DNA of 64,000 nt from Minutocellus sp. GHC0000111 (taxonomy: Eukaryota): the NCBI GenBank assembly GCA_977018835.1, contig OZ361260.1:3720001-3784000 (forward strand). Direction: 5' to 3'. The translations under genes and the position numbers were made by a program. Numbering within the stretch: position 1 is the first letter of the stretch; each line of letters starts with the position of its first letter. A model generated the notes under the pieces. The model ran no database searches, was not told the origin of the DNA, and saw nothing but the letters and a program-made list of their open reading frames with translations. Shown in pieces: positions 46,373 through 61,986 of the stretch.

Positions 46373-48264
46373 CTTACGAAGTCCGTTTCGCGAGAAATCG
46401 AGCGCAGGGCCGGGACCAAAAAATGTCGATTTTTGGGCCCGCAACCCGGACACGGACACATGCATGTAAAGCCGGAACCATCAAAACTGACAAGAGAGCA
46501 CTACACATGCATGTACGGCATGTGTGTGTAGTAGCACAAATATAGCTCGAATCTAAATAATCTAGTATTATTTTAAACATAACATAACTTAAAAGCACCG
46601 CAGGACTAATTATCCATGGTTGGATCAGCAGGAGGAGGAGCGATAATTTTCCCATCTATCCGAACCATGCCATTTTCAGTCGGCCTGAAATCCTTTCGCA
46701 CCCCAACATGAATGCCTTCACCGTTTCCAAGAAAATCATTGTTGCCTTTTGCAACGATTACCTTCTTTGCAATTCTATGAGCCTGGATGTATGCCGATGC
46801 GATCTTCCAGTTTTCCAGCCCCATCCAAACTTCCTCCGCTGCATCCCAAGTCTGATCTTCTGTCAAAACCTTCAGCCCCTCCCGATCGCGGCTCAACATT
46901 GTATGCCGCTTTGACATGCAAGGGAAAACAGACAGATCAAGAACATTCATATGGGGCATTTGCGGGGCCTGAGGTTCCCAACGCCATCCCTTGTCCCGAC
47001 AGTATCCTTCCACATATTCCACAAATTCAGTCTCGGCATGGGGCCCAGCATTGTCGCCCTGAAAAATAGGGACATAGCCTTCAAACTTTCCACCAGGTCC
47101 GACCAAAGCCTCAACATCCGGAAACATCTTGTTCTCAAATAAAGCTTTCAGTGGGAACTTGGGATTATCAAGGGTGCCATGGCTGCATCCAGTCACCGCG
47201 CAATCCACAAGGTATAGATCGTCTTTCTTCCGAACCACCGGGCCGCAATATTTGATTCTACCATCTGCCTGCCGCACCGCCTCCCTTACCATCTGCCTCG
47301 CAATTTTATGCGCCTGAGCCCGAAAAAGTCCAAGCTTGAACGCAATGCCGCCATTCTCAATGCTGTCAATAAAAGCCAAGGCAGTGACAGCCACCACCAT
47401 GCACTTGTTGATGTGATTTCGGTGATATGCCGAGAAGGACCGAGGATCAATACCCAATTCTGCAACTTGCTTGGCATACGATCGAAGAACCAAGCCCCAA
47501 AACCACTTCTCATCGAACATAATAAGGAGAAACTTGCCACCGCCGAGCCCCCAATTGTTTCGGAATTTCCGCGCAAATGCCAAATGTTTCTCCATCTGAT
47601 GGGTAGTAAGGAGAGGGATGATCCTTTCGGCATAGTACCGGAACCCTTCCCGCGACATTATCCACCGCCGTATTGCCGAGTAGGAACACCAAAAGTTGAC
47701 ATCCACCTCCAGCTCCCGCCAAGATTCCCGAGGATTTCGTATCAGAGCATCAACAATAACATCTCGAATGTATGGCTGCATAGCCAGATGAGATCTCCTC
47801 TTCATCTCCCACATCGCCTTCTCAGATGCAGGTAGAGCACCATACGCCTTCATCCATCCCGAAAATCGTGCACCATGCTCTGCGCTGGACAGCACCGAAT
47901 AGTCCACCTTTGCCTGCTCCCTGCACTTGGCAATTGCAAAGAGACATGGTGCAGTATACCGCCGGGTCGCCGTTGCAAGATCGTCGATGACAGAACGGAA
48001 GGCGGCCGAATCAGATGAATCATCGGCACTCGTTGGGAAGCAGTATACCGGTCCAAGTGCGACGAACGCGTCCATTTGATTAGAGCCGCTGAAATCTAAA
48101 GTCTTATCCGAATTATTGTTTCACATGAAGATAAATCAAAATTAGAGTAAAAATAGCCATTTTCTTAAATATTTCAGCATGACTATTCTTCGAGGCGCTT
48201 TTCAATCCCCTCGAAAGCAGTCAAAAACCGGGCGCTCGATTTCTCGCGAATCTGACCTCGTAGG
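46373..48264 (-). mobile_element. Mariner-like DNA transposon, 1892 bp, 33-bp imperfect TIRs, TA flanks
   Basis: TA|CTTACGAAGTCCGTTTCGCGAGAAATCGAGCGC (46373-46405) versus GCGCTCGATTTCTCGCGAATCTGACCTCGTAGG|TA (48232-48264), 29/33 match. Confidence 0.9.
46606..48075 (-). CDS. IS630/Tc1/mariner transposase, DD38D
   Basis: FDEKWF..QGDNAGPH..QAPQMPHMNVLDLSVF with 38 residues between the second and third Asp; motifs resemble plant-type DD39D mariners. Confidence 0.9.
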   Translation of the reverse strand: MDAFVALGPVYCFPTSADDSSDSAAFRSVIDDLATATRRYTAPCLFAIAKCREQAKVDYSVLSSAEHGARFSGWMKAYGALPASEKAMWEMKRRSHLAMQPYIRDVIVDALIRNPRESWRELEVDVNFWCSYSAIRRWIMSREGFRYYAERIIPLLTTHQMEKHLAFARKFRNNWGLGGGKFLLIMFDEKWFWGLVLRSYAKQVAELGIDPRSFSAYHRNHINKCMVVAVTALAFIDSIENGGIAFKLGLFRAQAHKIARQMVREAVRQADGRIKYCGPVVRKKDDLYLVDCAVTGCSHGTLDNPKFPLKALFENKMFPDVEALVGPGGKFEGYVPIFQGDNAGPHAETEFVEYVEGYCRDKGWRWEPQAPQMPHMNVLDLSVFPCMSKRHTMLSRDREGLKVLTEDQTWDAAEEVWMGLENWKIASAYIQAHRIAKKVIVAKGNNDFLGNGEGIHVGVRKDFRPTENGMVRIDGKIIAPPPADPTMDN

Positions 48265-48811: not shown

Positions 48812-51800
48812 ATGATAATAGTGCGCAGAGCCATTCTTCTCGCTGTCAACATGAGCCTGGAGCTTTTGGCCGCGCTCCAGAACTCCAGCAACACCTTAAG
48901 TACTGGTGTCATCCTCGACGTTGGCAACCAGACGTATCAGGTGGTTGGTGGGAATTTCACCATAGTCCCCGGCAGTGACTTGGAGATCGACGTGGTCAAT
49001 CAAACAAATCTCGATGAAGGATTGAACGACAGTACTTCTACGCCCGGCGAAGACGAGAACCCAATCGTTACACCAGGAATACCAGCAGATATCGACGCCG
49101 ACGATGAGATCGAAATCTACCCAGAACCACGAAATTCAACTGATGTAGTGGGAACCTCGGATTTGACCTATCATGACGAGACATGGCATGGAAATCATCC
49201 CGACGATGAGCCATCTCGTTGGGTTCTCATTGGATCAGCACTCGACAATCTCGGCGAAGAGTACTGCATGGAAGTCAGAATGCCCGTGCATAGTGGGCAG
49301 ACCATCGGTGTGAGCATGTGTGATTGGGCGAAGGAAGAGCAGCTCTTCTTCTGGGAGGATGGAAAACGCATGCGACCTTTCCTCGATATTAGTCTGTGCG
49401 TTGACGCCAACGACGGATCGTGGCCAAGCTTGCGAGACTGCGAAGAGAATGGACCGCACCAACGCTGGGATGCAGGTAGTTTTGACGGAGTGCATCTCTC
49501 CCCAAGAACGCACCCGGACTCATGCCTAAAGCCCACCGAAGTTTCGAGAGGTTTCATAGAAAATAGCTCGATGGAATACGGGAGAGTGCGCAGAATGGAA
49601 GAAACAGAATTTTTCAGCAGAAGGTTCGGTCAGTGGCGAAACAGAACAGCAAGAAGAGCAGAACGAAGATGCCATTTGGCCCTCCGAACCAACGGCGGCT
49701 CTTTCTGAATACGTCTTTTTGATCAATCGAGCGCACGATTATGATGATCCCGATGCCAAGTGCTTGAAGGCGAATGATAGAGGTGAAGTTAAGTTGGTCG
49801 AATGTGAGGAAGACAATTACAAGATGCACTGGTTGAACGATGATTTTGATTTGTCTGATGAAAGTGCAGCAGTCCGACTAAGACCCAGGTCTGATCCTAG
49901 CACTTGCATCACTCGAGGTGATATTGACAAGCCGCCTTCGGATATTCATTGCTGTGTTGACGATACTCGCCTCTACATGAGAAGTTGCGACGGGAGCTCA
50001 GAGCAGATGTGGCTATACGACCGAACTTTTGGCTACCTTTCTCCAGCAGACTACGAGACCCTATGCATTGCATCTTGGTTCAACCCACGAGTAGGTCTCT
50101 CCTATTGTGCATTTGGTGCCATCGAAGAACAGTCATATGGTGAATTCCGGTTTGACCTAGTCGATCCAGCGAGCGGCTTGACAAGGCCCGCAGCCGTCGC
50201 CGAGGACGCCGACAACATGTTCTGGGTTGAGGCTACTGTCAGTCAAATACCCCGCCGGCTTTGGTGCAGTGTTTCTGATGGAGGACAAAATTGCAAGGTG
50301 GTGGCCGAACAGGATGACGACGGCGATATTGACGAAGATTTTGAATCTGTCGATGCCATATGGTTGAGAGACGACAATGACCGTCTTCGGTCTGCGTCCG
50401 ATACCAGTATTTGTCTCACCTACGATAGTGCTTACAGCAATCTGTATGCCACAGCATGCTATCAGTACAGAGAGGAGGAGCAGATTTGGCACTATGAAGA
50501 CAGAGGGAACATGGAACTCTCTCCAAAGGGAAATCCAAGTGTTTGTGCTGTGGCAAAACTTGGTGATGATCCACCAGTAGAAAGTTGTGGCAGCAGAGTC
50601 AACAAACAATCGTGGAGATTTGTTCCGTTCAACAACGAAACCCCCGAAGGTCCTTCTTCTTGTGATGAGGGCTTAGTAGATACAAATATGATTGTTTGGG
50701 AAGGCGGTGAAGGCTACTACTGTGTTGAAGCTAGCGACGTTGATGAAGGAAATGAGCTCGAACTCAAGAAGTGCGACGCATTGAATGAAAATCAGCTCTT
50801 CATCTTCGAAAACCATAAATGGATGTCCAAACGCAATCCTGATCTTTGCATACAAGCGATCAAAAATGAAGATACTGAGGGCATGAGGGTTCCCATTTTC
50901 ATGCCATGCGATGGGTCACTGAAGCAGAAATGGATATTTGGTGAAGATGGTGCGATAGTGTGGGGCAAGGACGATAGTCTCTGTGCCTCCTACCACTTTG
51001 ATGGCGAAAGGTCTTGGTTCTATAATTTCGGCCTGAAAACTTGTTCCAATGAAGAAAACAAAGACCAAATGTTTCAGCTTGTGAACCCAAAGGATTACAG
51101 TACTCCGACGCTGAACTATGTCCTCTTGTCCACCAAGAATGATTTGTCCTGGGCGATTTCCTGCTATCCTGATCATGAGGGTAAGTAATACTAGTAGCGG
51201 AACAGTGTGTGGAACTGATCATCATGCTTAAAAGCTGGGAAAATCTCACTCACTGATCCATTTCCCTCTCTTCTGAATTTAATTTTCCGTAGAAAACACT
51301 TGCCCGGGTTACCGAGAGATTCGGCCGACATATGGTAAATTTTATGAGGGCACCAAATGGTTTATCGAAGAAATGAAGAACGGAATCCGTCTTCGAAGAG
51401 GTGAACCTCGAGGTCCAATGCTGAAGGTGGACGGGCAGACCCTTTGGAAGTACAACCCGAATAGTAAGGAGTTGAAATCAGTTGCGAACGGGCAGTGCAT
51501 AGACAATAGAGGGCAGATAGGCAAACCATGCGAACCCTTTTGCGAAGAATGCGACTCATATTCCTGCTACGGTTCTACGGGCGACCTTACAATGGCGGAG
51601 TGCAATGGTAAGGTAAGGCAGCAATGGGTCCTCCAAGACGCCGATGACTTTTTGTACAGCCATGGTTCTGACTTCGCAGGCAAGCCTAACGAGAATGACT
51701 TCCATCTGTTGGTATCCTCGAAGGATAACGACTTCTGCGTTGGTGCAAAAGATCCATATGCGAGACACCCCGACGGTGAAATACTGCTCATGAGATGCAA

Positions 51801-52167
51801 TCCAGCTGATCCAAAGCAAGTATGGACTATCGAGACCGTCGAAGGAAGGAAAAGAATTCGTCTGAAGGCCAACCTCAGCTTATGCATGCACGTTTCTAGA
51901 GTAGAGCTGTTACAAACGCTTCATCTCGAGGAGTGCAATGATCTTCAGCAAAAGCAACACTGGAACCATAAATCAGAAGACGGTGAAATATCCGCCGCAA
52001 AGAATGGCAATTTGTGCGTTGGATTTGATTATGAAGACGGTTGTCTCCAAGAGGGAACTCCGCTGCAGCTGCTTCCTTGCAGCAACGGAGAGAGTCCTGA
52101 GCAAAGCTTTGATTTGGTGCGACCAAATGCTTACTTAGAGCGTCCGAACAGAGGTCGAACGTGGTGA
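48812..52167 (+). CDS. Large multi-ricin-B-lectin (beta-trefoil) repeat protein; intron 51181..51292; frameshifts near 49580-49710
   Basis: Repeated C-x(10-15)-C..QxW/F units (CDWAKEEQLF, CEENGPHQRW, CDGSSEQMW, CDALNENQLF, CNGKVRQQW, CNPADPKQVW). A GTAAGT..TAG intron joins ORFs 49719 and 51373 in frame. Confidence 0.75.
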
Positions 52168-52305
52168 AAACAGTAGAGTACATGAGGGTTAGAGACATAG
52201 ACTTGAACCAGTAGAACATTGATAAAACTTGTACGAATATCTGATCTCTATCTATTTACTCTATTGAACTCTCTTTCTCCGCCATGTAAAACTTTCCACC
52301 ATCGA

Positions 52306-52370
52306 CTGCGTATGGAATGTCGGAGAGATTGAAATTCGTCCCTTTCAATCGCTCGTCATTCTCCATCGAG
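52306..52370 (-). promoter_or_regulatory. Putative eukaryotic SECIS element
   Basis: Minus strand reads ATGGAG-A-ATGAC-GAGCGATTG-AAA-GGGACGAATTT-CAATCTCTC-CGAC-A-TTCCAT: helix I, AUGA/GA core, helix II and apical AAA. Folded by eye. Confidence 0.65.
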
Positions 52371-53771
52371 CGAAATCAATGATGAACCGTTGCCGAACAT
52401 AATTAGCGCTTTATTAACAACCGCTGCAATGAACGCAAAGGCAATGGCAGTAAGGCCCGCTCCAATCACATTTCTGTTCTTCAAGGTTTTCATTACAAAC
52501 ACTTTGATTCTGGTTTCCTGCTTTGACATGAGCTGACGTCCGGTTGCATCTACAAGCTTGGTAATGGCCTCGAAAGCACCCACAACTGCAGAAGCTTCTA
52601 CCAATAATTCTTTTCCTCCCTCCTTTACAACATTAGCGCGAGCTTCACTAACCTGGTCATCGTCAAATGGAATGGAACTACAAAGCGAAGCAAATAGTTC
52701 CAAAGCTTGCTCACGGGCCTGAGATGTGGGCGGGCATATAACCTTCATCTCGTTCCCGTGGCCTTCATGTCAATACGTGCACTTATGTGCCTTTGCAGTA
52801 GCTCCCGCCACCGTCTCCACGTCATGTCGACATACGGTGGAACATTTTGAAGTCCCCAGCTCATTCCATCGCAAGAGCATATCCTTTGCGGGCAGATATA
52901 AAGCCGCATGGAACGATTGAAAGAAGATAAAGTCTTCGATGGCCAAAATTGTGCAACGATAGGGCGATGGTGAGTATGGTAATTTGGCCCACGTCTCCGC
53001 GGGAATCTTCTTACATTCGGAACCGTCTCGAATAACATCCGACGACACAAAGAATGGCGAAAAAGCAAATTCCTGATTATACTGTATTCCTTTGAGGAGT
53101 AGTCGGTATCGGATGTTGCTTGGTGGAGGTGCACCCTTGATCTCGTGCCAACTTGGAAGGGCAGGGACATTGACGCCGTTTCCCAAGCTCAAAAAGAGCA
53201 CATGCAGAGCATGCGAAATGGACGACAGCAAAATTATCTCACAGTAAAGAGCCCGGGCAGCCAAATCTGCGTCTTCTCTTGTCATGGGTCTTCCACACTC
53301 CTCTTCGAATGATTTGTCATACTGATCCAAAATGCCACAGGACATTAATGCAGCCACGGCATCTTCGTAAAAGAGCTGATCGATACGTTCCTGATGACAT
53401 ACGAGCGTATGGACGATGGTCACGAGGCACTTTTCAACCTCTTTCGATAACTTGCTACCGGATTCGCCCTCGGTTGGGAATCCAGGCTTGTGCTTCTGGC
53501 TTGCATAAATGTTGTAGAATCGAGCATTCGGCATAGGGCAGACCATGGTGGATCGTCGCTCGGCTACATTTTCATGACAGTGCTTGCATTTGAGCAGAGC
53601 ATCTCGAGCGCAGAGAGCGACACCGAGGCGGATGTTTGAAGGCAGGATAGTCCCAGAGACGGTGCATAGATGCGTGTTGAAGGATTCGGCAAAAGCATGG
53701 AGGTCATGTATCCGCTCCTCAGCTGTTTGACCTGGCTCCTCGGCACTAATCGACTTTGGGAAGAGGCGCAT
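52356..53771 (-). CDS. AhpD/CMD-like alkylhydroperoxidase-related protein, probable selenoprotein (471 aa, Sec at codon 334)
   Basis: ORFs 52770..53771 and 52356..52748 are in frame across TGA 52770-52772, giving VETVAGATAKAHKCTY-U-HEGH. The second half has LVEASAVVGAFEAITKLVDATG and a hydrophobic tail. Confidence 0.8.
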
Positions 53772-59457: not shown

Positions 59458-61986
59458 TTACAAGCTGCCATTTTCTCTCAGTATCGCCGGCATCCAAGAG
59501 CTAACATCATTTGCCGATACACCGAAGTTTGTCTTAGCTTTCTTATTATTTCTTGCAGATTTCTTGTTGCTGCCTGGGCTTCTGCGCTTCTTTCCGGCGT
59601 AAACGACAACGTCGTCAGCATCGTCGCATTGACATTCAGCCCGAGTGTGGCCAAGCTGCTTGCATTTCTGACACTGCTGGTCAATCTTCTTCTTGCGGCC
59701 AGGCTTTGCTGGTTTCGCCTTACCAGCAGCTAGGGCCCTGTTCTTCTTGTACACATAGTCCTTGTCGTCTTTCTCGCTTCTGTTTCGCAAGGCTGCTCGA
59801 AGGCGCTTGCTGTCGCTCTTGCTCTTTTTGTGCTCATCGGTGCGCTTACGCGCAAGGTCGCCCTCGAGCTTCCGGTCAATTGCATCGAATCCATCTTTTC
59901 GGGTAGGAGAATCCCTCGATCCCAACTTTCCAAGAACTCGCTCATTGAATTCCGTACCCAGTGACTTGTGGCCAGCGGCTCTACTTGTTGCATTTGGGTA
60001 GGCGTCTGAAGCAGTCAAATTCGGCCTTTTCCCCATCGTGAACTTCGTCACCATCCCGTTGAGCTGTTCGACGCCGGTGGTAGATTCCTTCTTGCAGTTG
60101 GAGTCGGCAGTATTCTTGTTGATTCTCTTGGTTATTTCAAGCGTCATCTTGCGAATCGTGTCGTCACTAATCTCCAATATGTCGCCATCGAATTGATTCC
60201 CCGAGCTCCATTCCTCATCGAGCTTGCCATCACTCCAATCAGGATGAGCAATGCTGAGGCGAATCCAATCACACGTGTTGGTGGTGCAAAAAGTGTGAAT
60301 GCCACATTGGTGACGAACGACGGACTGGAGTTCTTTCTGAAGGAGGGCCAGATGACTTTGTTTTTCCTCCTCGGACACAGCACCATCGGGCTGATCGAGA
60401 ACGCTGTGCTTGTGCCGATCAGTAATCTTCGAAATGTCCTGTTTCGTCCGATTGATGCGTGGTCGGGGGATGGCATTAAAATTTTCAACTCCTTTGCATG
60501 CTTTTCGAAAGCCTGAGTCAATTGAATTGCTCAGATGATTAAAGTCACGGCAAAGCTCAACACCAGAAGCCAACTCATCACCTACTATGTCTTCCTGAGC
60601 GGCTGCTGCCCTAGTGATGCCTTTGCTATCGCCATCGGCAACGTGCTTCTCAACGAAAAGAGGACACGCCTGCACGCTTCCTTCATCGTCGACCAGAAGA
60701 TTCCGTCCAACATTCTCGGCCAGATGCTCCTCTGCCACACCGGGGGAGCAGGAAGAGTTGCGATAGCAGAAGCCATCATGGTCGTACAGGGCCAGCATCT
60801 CATCCTTGCTCATGTTTTTGAGCTCACTCGGCGTTATTGGATTGCCGGCTTCCCGCCTCTCCCTCAATCTTGCATTGCAGGCTCTCACGCAACAGTGGCA
60901 GCTTGCCTGAGAGATTCCCTTGTCAACAACAAGGCCAGTTTCCTTGTCTACGGCAAATACCGCTGCAGCAGAGCCAGTGTAGCAATGGCCGTAGTCGCGT
61001 TTGAGGGCGCTGCCGTCTTGGGCCACCGCAACCACCGCCGCCGTGTGCATCTCGCCGCCTTGTTCAAACTCAACAGTCTTGCTGCTAGCGGCACATGCTT
61101 TTGCCCTGTTCTCGTCAATGATTTCATCAGCTGCTTCAATAGCCGCTGCTCTGCATTTCTTTTCCACCTGTCGGGCACTCTTTTCGGTCGGATGGACGAT
61201 GTCGGCCTTCGTGCAGAAATTCATGAAGCGACTTGCGCACATGGCCTCATCTTCCGCTGCCTCCATCAGCTCCAAGTTCATTCCAGCCTGACTTCTAGAA
61301 TGCTTTCTGCCGGGGCACACAACTTCTGACCTCTGGCCGATCCAAGTGCAAAAAGAAAAAGGTTGGTTGCATCTGTCGCATCGCCATTCAAATGTGACGC
61401 CGAATCCACGCCGAACTGGCTCGGCCGAGAGACACAGATTGCCGCACGATCGGTGGAGATTCTGTGCGAAATCACACAGCTGCTTCATCTCAACCACAAT
61501 TCTTTTGCCGTTGAGCTGCACGCCGGTGATGTTGGGACGATCGGTAGCGTTGGCGGTGGGAGTAGATGACCGACCGCCCGAAGAATTCTTGTCGGAATAA
61601 CATTTCAGTGTCGCGTTGAGATGGGGCCCATGCTTTTCATCGTCCTGGAAGCAATTTTCAGGCATGGTCGGCAGTGATCGCTTGCCATTGCGTTGAGAGC
61701 GTGGGCTGGCGTTATCGGCTATTCTGGAGAAGCGGTAGAAGGGCTTTGCAACGTCAAGGCCTGATATTTTCTCTGGACGTCGTCGTTGGATGTTGACCTC
61801 GTGTCGTGTTGGGACGTGTTGAAGAGATGATCGAACAAGAGAGATCTCTAAGCTCGGCGATGCGCCACCGCGCATCAAGATGCGGACAAGCTCATCAACA
61901 GTGTAGTAAGTACATCTGACGTCGTCTGGGAATGAGAGCAAGAGTGAGAGGATTGCCTCCTTGGCGTTAGCACGTGATGTTTCCAT
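59458..61986 (-). CDS. Kolobok-type DDE transposase with a C-terminal CCHC knuckle
   Basis: VAQDGSALKR..ETGLVVD..CHCC..CYRN..VADGDSK..NH..TTGVEQLN; CQKCKQLGHTRAEC; 842 aa uninterrupted. Confidence 0.8.
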   Translation of the reverse strand: METSRANAKEAILSLLLSFPDDVRCTYYTVDELVRILMRGGASPSLEISLVRSSLQHVPTRHEVNIQRRRPEKISGLDVAKPFYRFSRIADNASPRSQRNGKRSLPTMPENCFQDDEKHGPHLNATLKCYSDKNSSGGRSSTPTANATDRPNITGVQLNGKRIVVEMKQLCDFAQNLHRSCGNLCLSAEPVRRGFGVTFEWRCDRCNQPFSFCTWIGQRSEVVCPGRKHSRSQAGMNLELMEAAEDEAMCASRFMNFCTKADIVHPTEKSARQVEKKCRAAAIEAADEIIDENRAKACAASSKTVEFEQGGEMHTAAVVAVAQDGSALKRDYGHCYTGSAAAVFAVDKETGLVVDKGISQASCHCCVRACNARLRERREAGNPITPSELKNMSKDEMLALYDHDGFCYRNSSCSPGVAEEHLAENVGRNLLVDDEGSVQACPLFVEKHVADGDSKGITRAAAAQEDIVGDELASGVELCRDFNHLSNSIDSGFRKACKGVENFNAIPRPRINRTKQDISKITDRHKHSVLDQPDGAVSEEEKQSHLALLQKELQSVVRHQCGIHTFCTTNTCDWIRLSIAHPDWSDGKLDEEWSSGNQFDGDILEISDDTIRKMTLEITKRINKNTADSNCKKESTTGVEQLNGMVTKFTMGKRPNLTASDAYPNATSRAAGHKSLGTEFNERVLGKLGSRDSPTRKDGFDAIDRKLEGDLARKRTDEHKKSKSDSKRLRAALRNRSEKDDKDYVYKKNRALAAGKAKPAKPGRKKKIDQQCQKCKQLGHTRAECQCDDADDVVVYAGKKRRSPGSNKKSARNNKKAKTNFGVSANDVSSWMPAILRENGSL

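Follow-up and report, generated by a model that had tools for sequence, protein, structure and literature searches.

Can one UGA serve both as the stop codon of a selenoprotein gene and as part of the SECIS core through which that gene is decoded? The question arises at a locus of Minutocellus sp. GHC0000111, for which an earlier note, made from the sequence alone, had described a eukaryote-type SECIS on a bacterial-type selenoprotein gene, with the UGA of the AUGA core acting as the terminator of the reading frame. We analyzed the 64,000-nucleotide stretch of contig OZ361260.1 that contains the locus (positions 3,720,001 to 3,784,000; assembly GCA_977018835.1), referred to here as the window. 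All coordinates are positions in the window, and the gene and its hairpins are on the minus strand.

Layout of the hairpin and end of the reading frame

Every motif that the note had listed was located on the minus strand at its expected place: AUGGAG from 52366, AUGAC from 52359, GAGCGAUUG from 52354, AAA from 52345, CAAUCUCUC from 52331, CGAC from 52322, and UUCCAU from 52317. They make up a likely eukaryotic SECIS (52312–52366, −) consisting of helix I (52366–52361 paired with 52317–52312), a core in which AUGAC (52359–52355) faces CGAC (52322–52319), helix II (52354–52345 paired with 52332–52323), and AAA at 52345–52343. The RUGAN…NGAN kink-turn core that closes helix II is present as AUGAC/CGAC, and the AUGA lies 410 nt downstream of an in-frame TGA at 52770–52772, as described. 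In the window as given, the UGA of this core (52356–52358) is indeed the terminator of the open reading frame. It closes a frame of 130 codons, which becomes a protein of 471 residues when the upstream TGA is read as Sec.

This arrangement depends on one base. The base at 52414 was missing from the short-read contigs of all four runs compared; each run has a single contig across the region, and none has a second contig that keeps the base. The comparison covered four of 24 listed runs, representing at most three samples from two studies, and three of the runs may be the window's own source. Without the base, the frame closes as AAVVIKR-TAA, with the stop at 52405–52403, and the core UGA is a terminator in the frameshifted reading only. 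The note had itself cautioned that a one-nucleotide error could hide an earlier stop, and this is what the contigs contain. The TAA is also the likely true stop judging by the ends of relatives. P0025, which is 93% identical, has AAVVIKR as its C-terminus, and P0026, P0027 and L001 end at most two residues from the VVIKR position. The number of residues after Sec is 121 in the contig form and 121, 123, 122 and 123 in the four relatives (the counts for the three P-numbered proteins assume the same 7-residue offset to the first Met), compared to 137 in the window as given. With the base missing, the protein therefore ends at the TAA (52403–52405) and the hairpin falls in the 3′ UTR, where the stop codon is followed by helix I at 36 nt and by the core at 43 nt, an ordinary position for such an element.

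The C-terminus itself provides further information. Hydropathy analysis predicts a C-terminal transmembrane helix followed by KR, that is, a tail anchor (52412–52469, −). The segment has a Kyte-Doolittle mean of 2.59 and ends two residues before the C-terminus, and six relatives have a similar tail; among the bacterial loci listed, none of 60 proteins reaches 1.8 at this place. The extension encoded by the window as given leaves 18 residues behind the anchor instead of 2–4. This extension would be real if the base at 52414 is genuine in the strain, in which case the protein terminates at the core UGA and helix I is part of the coding sequence, as the note had proposed. The window sequence itself speaks for that reading, and the window may come from another isolate than the runs compared; because contigs drop rare variants, a frameshift specific to the window's strain is conceivable. 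We regard it as very unlikely, given the four runs without the base and without a second contig, the four relatives that stop at the TAA position, the misplaced anchor, and a 1476-nt contig that lacks the base and has two further letters unlike the window. The extra base is likely an assembly error, and the overlap of SECIS and coding sequence that the note had called unusual is almost certainly not real.

The upstream UGA lies at a conserved redox site

In the frame of the short-read contigs, and by comparison with homologues, the gene is an intronless CDS (52403–53771, −) predicted to encode an AhpD-related selenoprotein of 455 residues. Its in-frame TGA (52770–52772, −) would specify Sec334 in the motif C331-T-Y-U334-x-x-x-H338. 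All six close homologues end at the residue before the UGA. L001, the one relative for which DNA is at hand, has a TGA at the Sec site and an open frame behind it; its DNA ends 24 nt after its stop codon. A metagenome scan for DNA relatives returned one locus from 182 candidates, ending before any SECIS, and no DNA relatives were found in viral contigs, in plasmids or, by close alignment, in prokaryote genomes.

By profile search, the protein belongs to a family that comprises 133 clusters when grouped at 50% identity. Exactly at the Sec site, 66 of these clusters end, 63 of them with a Cys three residues before; they are seen as protein ends, and the identity of the stop codon is given by DNA for two family members only. 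Another six clusters read through the site, with Cys in four and Trp and Tyr in one each. The four Cys forms have the sequences SxxC, SxxC, AxxC, and TxxC; since their first position is Ser, Ser, Ala or Thr, the Sec position is the conserved one of the pair. Two clusters are named gene models without the Sec-site segment, and the other 59 comprise fragments, proteins with an earlier end, and unclassed cases. Of 49 full-length family members, 39 have an N-terminal Cys pair, as do 32 of 60 bacterial proteins among the loci listed.

Some individual members deserve mention. P0039 and P0056, both full length, have CAFW and CEYY, with Trp and Tyr in place of Sec. These may be genuine substitutions; the Trp could alternatively reflect a gene caller that applied a different genetic code to the UGA. 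The two named models, P0029 (KAL7533061.1) and P0138 (CAB9528885.1), are public diatom models that lack the CxxU segment, probably because an intron was called across the UGA.

Species names in the 26 clusters examined were limited to Thalassiosira sp. AJA248-18 and Seminavis robusta, both diatoms. One of the same 26 clusters includes MMETSP transcripts, and none names a prokaryote. The window protein groups with the Thalassiosira protein with support values of 96 and 100. Together with the eukaryotic genes around it, this points to a centric diatom as the likely host.

Relation to bacterial selenoproteins

The protein matches the NCBIfam model NF041238 (AhpD_rel_CFYUT) with an E value of 2.7e-14 and 53.2 bits, against a cutoff of 175. 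None of 60 family members reached this cutoff (best score 56.7 bits), whereas all eight bacterial proteins tested passed it. NF041238 corresponds to the bacterial 'hypothetical protein 1' of the Sargasso Sea study, according to passages of PMC1088965 and a table of PMC13188914. To compare the two groups, we used a bacterial set that came from a motif scan of prokaryote genomes, which found at least 121 loci, 60 of which had a full-length frame and were kept. The CTYU of the window protein aligns with bacterial CFYU, and the protein matches a profile of 59 bacterial proteins with an E value of 2.7e-17. The homology is colinear in both halves, with Sec at the same CxxU, His at +4, and a similar length behind Sec. 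The window protein differs in being about 80 residues longer before Sec, in its predicted tail anchor, and in the absence of the bacterial SECIS. That element, a small conserved hairpin 21 nt behind the UGA (consensus GCUC-CGUGC-GAGC), is present in 57 of the 60 bacterial genes among the loci listed and in neither of the two diatom-family genes.

A FastTree analysis with 30 bacterial proteins and 49 from the family separated the two groups by a long branch with support 100. The tree is unrooted, carries a long-branch warning and does not indicate donor or direction; transfer from bacteria would be plausible. The description of a eukaryote-type SECIS on a bacterial-type selenoprotein thus stands in part. 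A SECIS-like hairpin does lie behind a UGA gene related to NF041238, but 'bacterial-type' overstates the relation, given the eukaryotic neighbouring genes (RING finger, Mutator and Tc1 transposases, ricin-B lectins), the grouping with Thalassiosira, the score of 53 versus 175 bits, and the missing bacterial SECIS.

Within the bacterial set, L017 and L018 are NF041238-like selenoprotein genes that lie in tandem on one Dehalococcoidia chromosome, separated by about 1.2 kb, and two further pairs of such genes (L014 with L049, and L051 with L078) occur in one genome each.

Predicted fold and function

A Pfam search with the protein gave nothing meaningful, and a single-sequence search of the PDB returned no matches. 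A family profile of 94 sequences matched the E-x11-CxxC-x3-H helices of D. radiodurans AhpD (6k40) with an E value of 3e-4; weaker matches were obtained to four further AhpD-like structures. The structure model built from these 94 sequences has a pLDDT of 92, compared to 39 with an input of seven sequences. In Foldseek the best rows were Sestrin2 (probability 0.98–0.99, E 0.016–0.02), followed at lower rank by Bmp8 and AhpD; at E up to 0.001 there was no structural match. With AhpD/CMD-fold proteins (6k40, the debrominase Bmp8, and human Sestrin2) the protein shares the helix E-x11-C-x-x-C-x3-H and an all-helical model, at 10–17% sequence identity, and the likeness to Sestrin2 consists of Foldseek rows above E 0.001. 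The redox Cys of Sestrin2 is in the N-terminal half of that protein, unlike the CxxU of the window protein, which is in the C-terminal half. Judging by the motif and by AhpD chemistry, the protein is most likely an AhpD-type peroxide or disulfide reductase that would use Sec as its nucleophile.

A hairpin directly behind the predicted selenocysteine codon

A stable hairpin in the coding region (52709–52762, −), larger than the bacterial one, starts 8 nt after the predicted Sec codon. In the window it has a z score of −4.1 against synonymous shuffles, with none of 1500 as stable, and it is the best of 107 windows. The counterpart in L001 is less pronounced (z −1.7, 86 of 1500 shuffles as stable). 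All 11 consensus pairs are kept in the two sequences, none of them by compensatory change. Its place makes it a candidate for, and it may be, a Sec redefinition element as defined in passages of PMC4561486. We also considered that it could be a relic of the bacterial SECIS, which was ruled out by position and motif.

Parts of the same article (PMC4561486) indicate that such hairpins can drive readthrough independent of Sec, which bears on whether the UGA encodes Sec. It might instead be a true stop or be read through without selenium, the locus being a split gene, a pseudogene, or a case of leaky readthrough promoted by the hairpin. An in-frame Met seven codons after the UGA would suit a split gene, and gene callers do list the second half alone. 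Set against this are the stop exactly at the redox residue in 66 clusters less than 50% identical to one another, the Cys in four others, and the bacterial relatives that carry TGA plus SECIS at the same site. In addition, the frame downstream of the UGA is conserved (39, 33 and 62 changes at codon positions one, two and three) and completes one confident fold. A stop or selenium-free readthrough is accordingly most improbable in our view, and we conclude from the comparison of sequences that UGA 334 nearly certainly encodes Sec.

Tests of the SECIS candidate

The 76-nt hairpin region folds with −23.4 kcal/mol (z = −2.17), and 5 of 200 shuffles were as good. Our own strict SECIS pattern, scanned over 128 kb and over shuffles, had this hairpin as its one match, against 0.47 in shuffles. 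We then turned to the four SECISearch patterns published in the supplement of PMC3753652 and re-implemented three of them, without the energy filters of the program. The hairpin matched the loose pattern but neither the strict nor the default pattern, because only 10 nt separate the core from the AA. The loose pattern matched 24 times in 128 kb; by upper-stem energy the hairpin was the fourth best of these, and it was the only loose match in the 1.27 kb behind the UGA. Rfam gave no matches on the whole window at the gathering threshold. On 52000–52800 with E up to 10, five unrelated chance matches and no SECIS were returned, so the covariance-model check that the note had named came out negative for the hairpin. 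ViennaRNA predicted that the apical AAA pairs with UUU (p 0.98–1.0), which the note had raised as a caveat; opening these pairs costs about 5 kcal/mol. Eight RNA runs contain 15–50% of the sampled words, which has no bearing on the 3′ end of the mRNA.

Eukaryotic SECIS elements (type I/II; SECISearch, PMC3753652; Rfam) and this hairpin have in common a place in the 3′ UTR, an AUGA…GA core, two helices, and an apical AA(A). They differ in the 10 nt from core to AA, in an AAA that is able to pair, and in the lack of an Rfam match. Such differences would be explained if the selenoprotein is real and the hairpin a chance look-alike, the working SECIS being elsewhere or of an unusual type. The negative Rfam result, the failure of the strict and default patterns, the frequency of loose matches, the paired AAA, and a fold z of only −2.17 all point in this direction. 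On the other hand, no other candidate lies in the UTR between the stop codon and the convergent gene. Three NUGA sites occur in these 235 nt, and only the one in the SECIS core closes a stem onto a GA. The chance of a match in about 600 nt is roughly 0.002–0.005 for our own patterns; the loose-pattern counts give about 0.02 when the energy rank is taken into account and 0.11 when it is ignored. Moreover, in the benchmark of Chlamydomonas elements given in the SECISearch3 supplement (PMC3753652), the default pattern recovered two of eight and Infernal (score 10) four of eight, so that, as far as this benchmark goes, algal SECIS elements often fail such tests. We therefore consider a chance resemblance quite unlikely. 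Given its place, the hairpin is beyond chance, yet it is not a textbook SECIS. On the strength of its sequence and position, it is probably the working SECIS of the UGA gene.

One other site in the window, at 61250 (−), passes the strict, default and loose patterns with an upper-stem energy of −12.9. It lies inside a Mutator-like ORF and is probably due to chance.

Surroundings of the gene

Three consecutive ORFs with ricin-type beta-trefoil lectin domains (48812–52167, +) probably belong together as exons of a single large gene, or else represent tandem copies. The final ORF is convergent with the selenoprotein gene and ends about 235 nt from its stop. A Tc1/mariner-like transposase ORF (46606–48075, −) and a Mutator-like transposase ORF (59458–61986, −) are also present. 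In P0009, from another assembly, residues 55–130 occur twice in frame, corresponding to 53381–53610 of the window. Contigs break exactly at the ends of this segment, the depth rises about 1.5–1.7-fold, and a 58-nt contig fits only half, which suggests that some molecules carry a tandem duplication of 228 nt; the window has one copy. Furthermore, one contig covers the gene from 52135 to 53380 at about half the depth of 52039–52135, a stretch from which a second contig continues into unlike sequence. Either a repeat in the flank or the presence of the selenoprotein gene on just one of the haplotypes could account for this.

Discussion

Taken together, the hairpin is with good probability an ordinary eukaryotic 3′ UTR SECIS of a likely diatom gene, in which an in-frame UGA is predicted to be read as Sec, giving an AhpD-fold redox enzyme of 455 residues, and the overlap with the coding sequence stems from one extra base. 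By analogy with established eukaryotic Sec decoding, SBP2 would bind the kink-turn core and eEFSec would deliver Sec-tRNA to UGA 334. The hairpin at +8 may help by slowing termination, and translation would then continue to the TAA. In the enzyme, presumably tail-anchored in an organelle membrane, an AhpD-type mechanism of peroxide or disulfide reduction would use Sec334 as nucleophile, Cys331 as the resolving residue, and Glu319 and His338 as a possible proton relay.

We found no eukaryotic AhpD-type selenoprotein in the literature covered, a search that extended neither to the Aureococcus selenoprotein lists nor to the supplement of PMC7539508. The main text of this algal survey (PMC7539508), which reports 42 selenoprotein families, one of them named 'Hypo', has no AhpD or CMD. 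In PMC2375036, Ostreococcus is credited with three hypothetical selenoproteins and T. pseudonana with none. AhpD-like and CMD stand in what reads as the prokaryote column of PMC7435645, AhpD-like families are treated as prokaryotic in parts of PMC2398784, and 'AhpD' is absent from the available portions of PMC6627142 and from supplement file 2 of PMC3753652. It is unlikely, though by no means far-fetched, that the family has been published before under some neutral name.

AhpC_b and SymSEP, algal selenoproteins for which PMC7539508 gives a proposed bacterial origin, likewise come from redox genes that are related to prokaryotic ones and rely on a eukaryotic SECIS in the 3′ UTR. They are AhpC- or thioredoxin-like and have prokaryotic homologues with Cys, whereas the present family has an AhpD fold and bacterial homologues with Sec. 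Because the bacterial homologues already contain Sec, it was either retained while the type of SECIS changed or gained on two occasions. The family behind the hairpin probably constitutes a new branch, in eukaryotes, of a kind of selenoprotein known from bacteria. A fuller account has, in our estimate, an even prospect of being correct: this would be the first eukaryotic AhpD-fold selenoprotein family, an old and diversified diatom family hidden as truncated or Sec-skipping models, which kept the Sec of its bacterial ancestor, exchanged the bacterial SECIS for a 3′ UTR SECIS plus an SRE-like hairpin, and became tail-anchored in this branch.

The SECIS element itself is ordinary, and the claimed oddity of a SECIS core that is also the stop codon disappears. 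The remaining finding contributes one more fold to the set of eukaryotic selenoproteins, in organisms that depend on selenium. At least 63 deeply diverged clusters of the CxxU type are cut at the UGA or bridged by gene callers, and the gene models of Thalassiosira sp. and Seminavis robusta are without the active-site segment. The family also offers a tractable case for asking what allows a Sec codon to persist when it passes between the decoding systems of bacteria and eukaryotes.
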